This document shows positions 30,712 to 31,317 of a stretch of DNA of 64,000 bases, piece after piece. The translations under genes and the position numbers were made by a program. Every line of letters starts with the position of its first letter. Positions within the stretch are counted from its first letter, which is position 1. Below the pieces are notes generated by a model, which had not been told where the DNA came from, did no database searches, and saw only the letters and a program-made list of their open reading frames with translations. This stretch comes from a virus (Duplodnaviria; Heunggongvirae; Uroviricota; Caudoviricetes): positions 13,560-77,559 of the IMG/VR virus record IMGVR_UViG_3300033075_001617; one strand, given 5' to 3'.

Positions 30712-31317
30712 TCACCACTGTGGCTTGTCCTCCACTACCGGAGGTTCAACGTCGGGCACGTCCTTGAACACCACCACTGTGACGTCCTCTCCTTGTAAGG
30801 TGTTGCCGATGATCTCTTTTATTAGGCCCCAGCTTCCTCCAGCCAGTCCCGCCCCGATCATAGGCAGACCAATGCGCTTCCCTGAGAAGTTCTCCTTGAT
30901 CAGGCGGAAGCACTTCTCTACCGACTCATACTCCACGTCCACTTTGCTGCGCGTGTAATTGTACTGCGTGTAGAGATTCAAGATGGTAAGGTCGCCTATC
31001 TGGGCCGAAGAGTATGTCCCCATTTTGCTGCGGTCGCTCTTTTTGGTGGCGCAGTCGGCCGCATACGCCTCGGGCCACGTGTCTTTGATGGCCTTGGCTA
31101 TGCCAGCGCCCATCACACAGTGACAATTGCAACCGTGCGCGATGACGTCGAAGTGTCCCTTCTTGGCCAGTTCGATCAAATTGCCATAGGTCACCTTGAA
31201 GGGGTGACCGTTCGCGTTGAACGTGTGCAGCGCGTCCTTGTCCTGAGGTTTCATGGACACAAATCTAGGTCCGACAGCAGCACATCCAAATTCTATTGCT
31301 AAGTTTGACCCGGACAA
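30712..31317 (-). CDS. macro-domain protein (ADP-ribose binding/processing)
   Basis: HGCNCHCVMGAGIAKAIKD and IGAGLAGG glycine-rich loops characteristic of macro domains. 201 aa. Confidence 0.8.
   Translation of the reverse strand: MSGSNLAIEFGCAAVGPRFVSMKPQDKDALHTFNANGHPFKVTYGNLIELAKKGHFDVIAHGCNCHCVMGAGIAKAIKDTWPEAYAADCATKKSDRSKMGTYSSAQIGDLTILNLYTQYNYTRSKVDVEYESVEKCFRLIKENFSGKRIGLPMIGAGLAGGSWGLIKEIIGNTLQGEDVTVVVFKDVPDVEPPVVEDKPQW

Follow-up and report, generated by a model that had tools for sequence, protein, structure and literature searches.

A stand-alone phage macro-domain gene, tentatively read as an Adpp-type ADP-ribose-1''-phosphate phosphatase

A virus of the class Caudoviricetes carries a macro-domain gene on the minus strand, most likely at positions 30712-31254, of the 64,000-nucleotide stretch analysed here (the window; positions 13,560 to 77,559 of IMG/VR record IMGVR_UViG_3300033075_001617). 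The encoded protein is an ordinary member of a widespread phage family and stands without the usual partner genes. Our preferred, though tentative, reading is that it is an Adpp-type phosphatase of ADP-ribose-1''-phosphate (ADPR-1''-P) that handles metabolites derived from nicotinamide adenine dinucleotide (NAD) during infection, with the partners known from NARP1 operons encoded elsewhere or absent. Fold, clade membership, residue conservation and gene context are shown directly, whereas the substrate and its physiological source are inferred.

The macro-domain call, made in the earlier note from two glycine-rich motifs, is borne out by profile searches, which assign the protein to the macro fold and not to a non-macro one. 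The Pfam Macro profile (PF01661) matches with 33.5 bits, above its gathering score of 22 (E=4.5e-8), over profile positions 2-112 of 118, and phrog_335, annotated as 'phosphatase', matches at E=2.5e-54. An AlphaFold2 (AF2) model based on 44 homologues (pLDDT 85.5, pTM 0.81) retrieved TARG1, DarG, BT1257 and SCO6735, then Poa1p and viral macro domains, as best Foldseek matches in the PDB at a probability of 1.00; save for one unrelated entry at rank 48, the top 50 were all macro domains at that probability. Model, structure search and sequence agree on the three-layer alpha/beta/alpha macro fold with its two glycine-rich ligand loops. The family is large: 1189 database homologues were found at E<=1e-5, one of which is 99% identical and comes from an independent metagenome contig of 53.5 kb, and tblastn detected homologues in 2921 of 50,697 phage records, i.e., in ~6% of sequenced phages.

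Within the macro superfamily, the profile of the family matched the PDB sequences of BT1257 (E=1e-17) and SCO6735 (E=1.5e-15) best, followed by TARG1 (E=7e-10), DarG (E=5e-9) and Poa1p (E=1.5e-7). None of the MacroD, Af1521 and YmdB chains was retrieved at E<=0.01, and the YmdB-like NCBIfam model PRK00431 reached only 12.9 bits (cut-off 246). On these sequence grounds, the window protein is placed in the ALC1/TARG1-like class. This settles in part the placement as a MacroD-, Poa1- or Af1521-type enzyme that the earlier note had proposed as a check, as MacroD and Af1521 drop out and Poa1 remains as a distant relative only, the protein falling instead into the Adpp clade.

Two functions of phage macro proteins are known experimentally, those of Adpp, which is encoded inside NARP1 operons, and of AdfM, which represents a different, Lys-type branch. 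AdfM (PhiKZ gp104) is DarG2-like and strips DarT2-installed ADP-ribose off DNA; N22 and K80 are the named active-site residues of DarG (PMC13309987; for the DarG2 antitoxin macrodomain see also PMC5179494). Adpp is present in ~15% of phage NARP1 operons, and the one encoded by Vibrio phage Gary (KNV71_gp137) has been purified and turns ADPR-1''-P, the product of the RES-domain defence aRES, into ADP-ribose (bioRxiv 10.64898/2026.01.28.702374). Adpp is needed for NARP1-AP to beat aRES, with NARP1 rebuilding NAD+, and mutations in Adpp are reported to abolish the anti-aRES effect; an H24A mutant is found in Table S4 (bioRxiv 10.64898/2026.01.28.702374).

Compared with these enzymes, the window protein is closest to the NARP1-associated macro proteins, the sequences of which were taken from Supplementary Table S1 (bioRxiv 10.64898/2026.01.28.702374). 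BLASTP gave 127 bits and 44% identity over 141 amino acids (aa) with the NARP1-associated macro protein of Acinetobacter phage phiAbaA1 (E=1e-42), and 87 bits and 36% identity over 157 aa with Gary Adpp (E=4e-27). The corresponding scores were 46.6 bits for SCO6735, 43.5 for DarG, 35.8 for TARG1, 30.8 for Poa1p and 28.5 for AdfM, the last over a local stretch of only 39 aa (E=2e-5); the E-values for Gary and phiAbaA1 derive from single pairwise searches and the other figures from a combined run. In a simple neighbour-joining distance tree from a MAFFT alignment, the window protein grouped with the core NARP1-associated macro proteins including Gary Adpp in 165 of 200 bootstraps (82%) and with the phiAbaA1 protein in 189. 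DarG and AdfM formed a separate clade, with the window protein outside it, in 200/200 bootstraps, and SCO6735 and BT1257 paired equally consistently (200/200) and fell outside the Adpp-like clade, as sister to it. The Poa1 and TARG1 sequences used were identical to the PDB chains. The record sets detected by tblastn with Gary Adpp (2705) and with the window protein (2921) were almost the same, with the same host spectrum.

Ranking by solved structures gives a different impression, since SCO6735 and DarG score well in PDB and NCBIfam searches, and we considered this as a sign of anti-DarT function. It was dropped: in a phmmer search of the PDB, Gary Adpp itself ranks TARG1, SCO6735, BT1257 and DarG ahead of Poa1. 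Rank among solved structures therefore cannot separate the functions, whereas clade membership does. AdfM also matches PHROG 335 (E=8e-43), so that, judged by sequence, this family mixes Lys-type (DarG-like) and Gln-type (Adpp/SCO6735-like) branches. In Escherichia phage EmilieFrey (MZ501063.1; locus L010, 3241-6990), the macro homologue carries a further domain of ~95 aa at its N-terminus; the gene follows those for a HAD hydrolase and a ComF-like phosphoribosyltransferase (PF15610) and lies three genes before that for the membrane protein TerC, an arrangement that is not NARP1.

The residues around the predicted active site are strictly conserved. In an alignment of 44 family members, H40, G41, C42, N43, C44, K77, G79, N93, Y95 and Q97 are invariant, as are P131, G134, G136, L137, G140 and W142 (residue numbers refer to the 180-aa version of the protein). 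All following coordinates are on the minus strand. The H40-G-C-N43-C motif (31123..31137), invariant in 44/44 members, contributes H40, which aligns with H24 of Adpp and H23 of Poa1, and N43, which aligns with N22 of DarG and N23 of AdfM. Glycine-rich loop 1 (V47-MGAGIAKAI-56; 31087..31116) is the predicted phosphate-binding loop according to alignments with 5e3b, 5m3i and 5m31, and places A50 at the site of SCO6735 K34 and of a DarG Lys. In Y95-T96-Q97 (30964..30972), pairwise and profile alignments put the invariant Gln at the site of SCO6735 Q85, DarG K80, TARG1 K84 and AdfM K78. Glycine-rich loop 2 (I133-GAGLAGG-140; 30835..30858), checked against the DNA, has A138 at the site of TARG1 D125; hence both members of the Lys84/Asp125 dyad of TARG1 (OARD1) are replaced, by Q97 and A138.

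With the Adpp proteins the window protein shares, besides the clade, the motifs AH-x-CNC, GD(R/K)SK(L/M)G, N-x-Y-(T/G)-Q-(Y/F) and P-x-IG(A/C)GLAGG-W, including the essential His (H24 = H40), at 36-44% full-length identity (Gary, phiAbaA1). The two differ in that the window gene is not flanked by Adps and Namat, in an 18-aa N-terminal extension and an acidic ..PQW tail that Adpp does not have, and at the tip of the phosphate loop, where the window protein has Ala, Gary Arg and phiAbaA1 Lys. Poa1p (PDB 6LFQ), an ADP-ribose-1''-phosphate phosphatase of the pathway that disposes of a tRNA-splicing by-product, performs the chemistry predicted for the window protein and shares with it the broad macro class and the I-H-x-C-N-C motif including H23 (mutated in PDB 6LFS). 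It is nonetheless distant (31% over 83 aa, E=1e-4 by BLAST), has a large insertion and no Gln at the Q97 site, and its residues S30 and F152 (mutated in PDB 6LFT and 6LFU) correspond to Val and Ala in the window protein.

The ADP-ribose-binding loops are intact, and the invariant His, Asn and Gln lie around the site that touches C1'' in related structures, so that the protein is predicted to be a catalytically competent hydrolase. In the mechanism that we propose, loops 47-56 and 133-140 would clamp the diphosphate and the distal ribose of an ADP-ribose moiety, and the invariant H40, N43 and Q97 would surround C1'' of the distal ribose. The substituent at C1'' would then be removed, the likeliest substrate being ADPR-1''-P, which would yield ADP-ribose and phosphate. 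With Gary Adpp, the product of the RES-type NAD+ phosphorylase aRES is returned in this way to ADP-ribose and NARP1 rebuilds NAD+; the window phage would use the same chemistry, most likely to handle NAD-derived metabolites while infecting. The enzyme would act alone or with partners encoded elsewhere in the genome, because the NARP1 partner genes are not found in the 64-kb window.

Several observations weigh against this reading. Pfam searches found Adps and Namat neither within two genes of the macro gene nor elsewhere in the window or in the loci of its relatives, a tblastn search of the window and of six loci from relatives, with Adps and Namat of Gary as queries, had a best match of E=0.024 only, and Pfam scans of all sizeable window open reading frames (ORFs) revealed no PRPP-synthetase-like or NAMPT-like protein. 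Macro enzymes that act at C1'' are often promiscuous. In the tree, the sequences of SCO6735, BT1257 and DarG were reconstructed from HMMER alignments and lack part of the N- or C-terminus. A single Adpp has been assayed so far, and the window protein is only 36% identical to it. Without a working NARP1, moreover, the phosphatase gave no protection against aRES (bioRxiv 10.64898/2026.01.28.702374). Finally, the His, Asn and Gln are common to SCO6735, a very active hydrolase of thymidine-linked ADP-ribose on DNA (PMC9411070), and these residues therefore cannot tell the two activities apart.

The last point leads to an alternative that we consider possible but doubtful, in which the enzyme acts on nucleic acid and, in the manner of SCO6735, DarG2 and AdfM, strips the ADP-ribose that DarT2-type toxins place on thymidine of single-stranded phage DNA, so that replication can resume; it could likewise undo the ADP-ribosylation of RNA or protein by other ADP-ribosyltransferases with a role in defence. 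Reversal of toxin-mediated ADP-ribosylation as counter-defence, which the earlier note had also offered, is plausible as a general role. The best relatives of solved structure are BT1257 and SCO6735, then TARG1 and DarG, and the DarG antitoxin is the top NCBIfam match, albeit at 48.9 bits against a cut-off of 250 (NF048014). AdfM, itself a stand-alone counter-defence gene of jumbo phages, falls within PHROG 335, and it shares with DarG2 and the window protein the macro fold and the Asn (N22/N23) that corresponds to invariant N43. Yet the window protein lies outside the DarG/AdfM clade in every bootstrap, its match to AdfM is confined to the short stretch given above, the catalytic Lys (Taq DarG K80, AdfM K78) is Gln, and the DarT-binding domain of DarG is not present in it. 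The nearest assayed relative is a small-molecule phosphatase and no DNA enzyme.

A further argument for activity on DNA is the resemblance to SCO6735 of Streptomyces coelicolor and BT1257 of Bacteroides, two orphan macro hydrolases of the ALC1-like type. SCO6735 beats DarG in activity on thymidine-ADP-ribosylated DNA, and Q85, with which Q97 aligns, is essential to this hydrolase activity (PMC9411070). Window protein, SCO6735 and BT1257 also have in common the Ala at the TARG1-Asp site, the AHxCN motif and P-x-IGCGLAGG-W, and are encoded by stand-alone genes with no toxin adjoining. The loci of the bacterial homologues are orphans in the same sense, as neither DarT nor any other toxin was found to adjoin them; an HNH_2 gene present in two of these loci was uninformative. 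On the other hand, identity to SCO6735 and BT1257 is 26-27%, and their sister clade does not include the window protein. Their loop 1 reads GWGKGF and contains a Lys on which activity on DNA depends, whereas the window protein has MGAGIA and thus Ala in place of SCO6735 K34, a residue whose change to Glu nearly abolishes DNA activity (PMC9411070). The mobile loop is two residues shorter than in SCO6735, with 12 residues between the Gln and the conserved Tyr compared with 14 in SCO6735 and 11 in DarG; in SCO6735, Lys89 and Lys93 of this loop position the DNA, and the loop of the window protein has R102 and K104, in a region where the alignment is uncertain. SCO6735 and BT1257 are strongly basic (isoelectric point 9-10), and the window protein has values of 6.5 as a whole and 8.6 in its core. 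Net charge and isoelectric point were considered as proxies for DNA binding and discarded, as enzymes of the Adpp clade and those acting on DNA have overlapping values and even AdfM is acidic. An acidic C-terminal tip of the window protein has been likened, speculatively, to the docking tails of single-stranded DNA-binding proteins (SSBs), which would fit action on DNA.

A second alternative keeps the chemistry of the Adpp-type reading and changes the source of the substrate. The earlier note had suggested the macro enzyme as the last step of a Tpt1 pathway, and we regard it as unlikely that the gene has this role of by-product disposal. In such a pathway, Tpt1 would take away the 2'-phosphates that ligation leaves in RNA, with ADP-ribose 1'',2''-cyclic phosphate (Appr>p) as by-product, a 2H enzyme would open the cyclic phosphate to ADPR-1''-P, and the macro enzyme would convert this to ADP-ribose. 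The scheme is chemically coherent in the genome of the window, and conversion of ADPR-1''-P is what the nearest tested relative, Gary Adpp, performs; that part of the suggestion stands, and the tie to Tpt1 finds no support. A bona fide Tpt1/KptA RNA 2'-phosphotransferase is encoded at 4012..4545 (-), with a match to Pfam PF01885 (E=7e-52) and an NCBIfam score of 268.8 bits against a cut-off of 239. A candidate phosphoesterase of the 2H fold, similar to CNPase and to the cyclic phosphodiesterase (CPD) domain of Trl1, is encoded at 1273..1755 (-) and adjoins a Nudix gene (750-1244). Although the candidate gave no sequence match in Pfam, PHROG, NCBIfam or the PDB, its H70-M-T and H121-I-T motifs are invariant among 23 homologues, and Foldseek searches with its AF2 model (pLDDT 77.9) returned the CNPase catalytic domain as best match (E=8e-5) and also the fungal Trl1 kinase-CPD, so that a 2H fold is supported by modelling. 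The two Nudix proteins, in contrast, are generic MutT-like proteins far below cut-offs, and Nudix typing gave no evidence of ADP-ribose specificity. The 'complete toolkit' for ADP-ribose of the earlier note thus retains Tpt1 and a modelled 2H enzyme, with both Nudix members as generic components.

These genes form an RNA-repair-like cassette (window 750-4545, minus strand) comprising Tpt1, three further genes coding for unknown proteins, 2H and Nudix, which is conserved in the relative L011 (6945-12834). In L011, genes for an AAA protein and for an RNA ligase (PF09414) come next, at a place that would fall beyond the left edge of the window, and homologues of both the 2H-like and the macro gene are recorded on a contig of 327,304 bp from a relative. 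Two interrupted tRNA genes, both missed by ARAGORN, lie just upstream of the macro gene and could need enzymatic splicing: one with anticodon GAU (29176-29319, minus strand; Rfam 52.3 bits) is interrupted by 72 nt in the anticodon loop, at the canonical 37/38 position, and the other (28934-29112, minus strand; Rfam 37.3 bits) has an insertion of ~108 nt past the anticodon stem. Folding with a view to bulge-helix-bulge structures gave z-scores of -1.8 and -0.9. As the insertions are too small for group I introns, enzymatic splicing is a possibility, and it could explain the Tpt1, the CNPase-like 2H protein and the RNA ligase of the relative. Taken together, interrupted tRNAs, a 2H CPD, RNA ligase, Tpt1, reuse of the 2H enzyme on Appr>p and the macro phosphatase can be proposed as the parts of a virus-encoded healing-and-sealing pathway of the fungal/plant type, although we doubt that the macro enzyme completes it. 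If it did, this would be the first complete Tpt1 pathway, by-product disposal included, described in a phage.

The genetic evidence argues against such a tie. A distance of 26 kb separates the macro gene from the conserved Tpt1-x-x-x-2H-Nudix-AAA-RNA ligase cassette, to which it does not belong. Tpt1 was detected by tblastn in 98 cultured-phage records and the macro protein in 2921, and in a search with both sequences concatenated, 57 of the 60 best Tpt1-bearing records showed the Tpt1 match alone (among them Erwinia/Dickeya jumbo phages, phiCD211-like phages, Bacillus phages G and C30-3, and Yersinia and Listeria phages). The 3038 records matched held only 19 extra matching places, so at most 19 of the ~2,900 macro-bearing records can carry Tpt1 and at least 99% are without it, counts that hinge on tblastn thresholds and on redundant GenBank/RefSeq records. 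Therefore, Tpt1 and macro genes are not coupled in general across phages. Poa1 itself is merely a distant relative of the window protein, and Poa1 and Cpd1 are dispensable in yeast. At the level of the genome, the gain is the recognition that no genetic coupling joins the macro gene to the Tpt1 cassette.

It is rather improbable that the macro enzyme serves as an eraser for ADP-ribosylating enzymes of the phage itself, limiting or reversing a self-inflicted modification. Candidate writers would be Tpt1, as a 5'-phosphate ADP-ribosyltransferase, and an ART-PolyVal ADP-ribosyltransferase that was not mentioned in the earlier note; the latter is encoded 10 kb off on the plus strand (20646-21164; Pfam PF18760, E=5e-16), making a writer and an eraser in one genome possible. 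However, homologues of this transferase occur in only 16 phage records compared with ~2,900 for the macro protein, the genes are not adjacent, and no tested family member has such a role. Very improbable, finally, is the neutralization of an ADP-ribose-derived immune signal by binding or cleavage, e.g., of the C1''-linked histidine-ADPR of type II Thoeris, since, even though the macro domain of ThsA binds His-ADPR (bioRxiv 10.64898/2026.06.04.730250) and our enzyme is predicted to work at C1'', it has no homology to known sponges, and its invariant catalytic-site residues fit an enzyme that turns over a substrate and not a sponge.

A known and very widespread family of phage macro proteins hence gains a new stand-alone member, which in itself is not surprising. 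The gene exemplifies a case far commoner than the one characterized experimentally, an Adpp-clade enzyme without NARP1 genes beside it, which is how most phage macro genes are placed. If stand-alone macro enzymes dephosphorylate ADPR-1''-P, NAD+ phosphorolysis of the RES type may be a wider pressure on phages than currently assumed. Should they act on DNA or RNA and free it of ADP-ribose, a second and larger family of anti-DarT-like factors would exist in the Gln-type branch.

For annotation, the coding sequence (CDS) can be corrected to 30712-31254, with Adpp-type macro hydrolase as the product name suggested by sequence comparison. The minus-strand ORF 30712..31317 named in the earlier note is present on direct reading, with a TTG start and 201 aa, and it holds both VMGAGIAKAI (31087-31116) and IGAGLAGG (30835-30858). 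The true CDS is, however, most likely 30712-31254 (180 aa, ATG start, TGA stop at 30712-30714) or 30712-31260 (182 aa), because the TTG start would entail an overlap with the divergent SPFH gene that begins at 31296 and because the start of close homologues corresponds to M22 (MK..FNANGHPFKV). Pfam and phrog_335 matches and the AF2 model are in line with the 180-aa version. The JGI gene call on the contig with the 99%-identical protein uses a GTG start at the equivalent of 31260, two codons 5' of M22, and in relatives an intergenic gap of 71 bp separates the macro and SPFH genes. The upstream piece of the TTG-start ORF (31255..31317, minus strand) is probably untranslated and part of a divergent intergenic/promoter region common to the SPFH gene. 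No Shine-Dalgarno sequence is evident upstream of the macro CDS, and a promoter scan of the region upstream of the gene produced a single weak sigma-70-like match that did not exceed the expectation from shuffled sequences.

Both ends of the protein are specific to its clade of close relatives, which are probably jumbo phages, and homologues of 146-152 aa have neither. The N-terminal extension (residues 1-18, ..FNANGHP..; 31201..31254, minus strand) contains in the AF2 model an extra beta-strand at residues 9-12, predicted with moderate confidence. The C-terminus is an acidic, proline-rich tail (DVPDVEPPVVEDKPQW; 30715..30762, minus strand) with a net charge of -4 and the tip ..[DE][DE]xPQW-COOH. 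A terminal tip of the type ..[DE][DE]x(P/Q)QW (QW/PW/HW) follows a variable linker in 16 of the 20 top homologues, and the model shows no secondary structure past residue 163 and a lowered confidence for the tail (block means 74-75). A variable linker followed by a conserved tip suggests a docking motif, and the tail is probably a disordered one. As a variant of the RNA-repair pathway proposed above, the PQW tip might dock the enzyme on replication/repair machinery, where it would act on ADP-ribosylated nucleic acid. The SSB of the phage (40040-40564) likewise ends in an acidic stretch, DDDDLPF, and several acidic-tail docking motifs may exist in this genome.

The macro gene is divergent from the SPFH/Band_7 gene and is followed downstream by a co-oriented gene for a 150-aa protein (30219..30671, minus strand), which also adjoins it in relatives L001-L005. 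The latter protein has no Pfam or PHROG match, and its gene is taken as context only. Between the macro stop and the ATG of this gene lies a hairpin with a perfect 9-bp stem (GATGTAGTT..AACTACATC) and a 10-nt loop (30672-30699, minus strand). It has no following T-run and was not called by the terminator scan, the terminator-like sites of which all fall within coding sequence; the hairpin may have a translational or RNA-processing role. Gene order is kept in relatives with macro proteins of 68-99% identity, with ClpB, PrsW, .. and Band_7 in one direction and the macro and 150-aa genes in the opposite one. In L001-L004, a 612-aa TROVE (Ro60-like) gene lies between PrsW and Band_7 (~6176-8014), whereas the window is without TROVE. 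None of the neighbours of the macro gene (SPFH/Band_7, PrsW protease, ClpB, FtsH-like) is tied to NAD or ADP-ribose. The membrane and proteostasis genes near the locus (13679-14626, minus; 25850-27883, minus; 31296-32735, plus; 33561-34373, plus; 34802-36859, minus) form an unusual set of two SPFH/Band_7 proteins, an FtsH-like AAA and M41 protease, a PrsW-family protease and a ClpB-like ATPase.

The source genome is most likely that of a jumbo phage. Megablast of 25-40 kb against the 50,697 phage records gave no match, so that the genome is not that of a known phage, homologues of window genes are found on contigs of up to 327 kb, and the phage content includes ribonucleotide reductase, primase-helicase, RecA-like, SSB, sigma factor and homing-endonuclease-like genes as well as at least 10 tRNAs. 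One tRNA (29689-29758, minus strand), called 'Pyl' by ARAGORN, has the anticodon CTA and resembles an amber suppressor, at an Rfam score of 27.7 bits that narrowly misses the gathering score of 29; read-through or recoding of TAG in the phage could be behind it. Two further genes are odd cargo for a phage, and both are kept in the relative L011. One (7189-8436, minus strand) codes for a truncated arginyl-tRNA-synthetase-like protein of 415 aa with HIGH- and KMSKS-like motifs, scoring 41.9 bits for NCBIfam argS, far under the cut-off, and the other (4691-6223, minus strand) codes for a 510-aa protein with the flavin mononucleotide (FMN) domain of glutamate synthase (Pfam E=1e-71).

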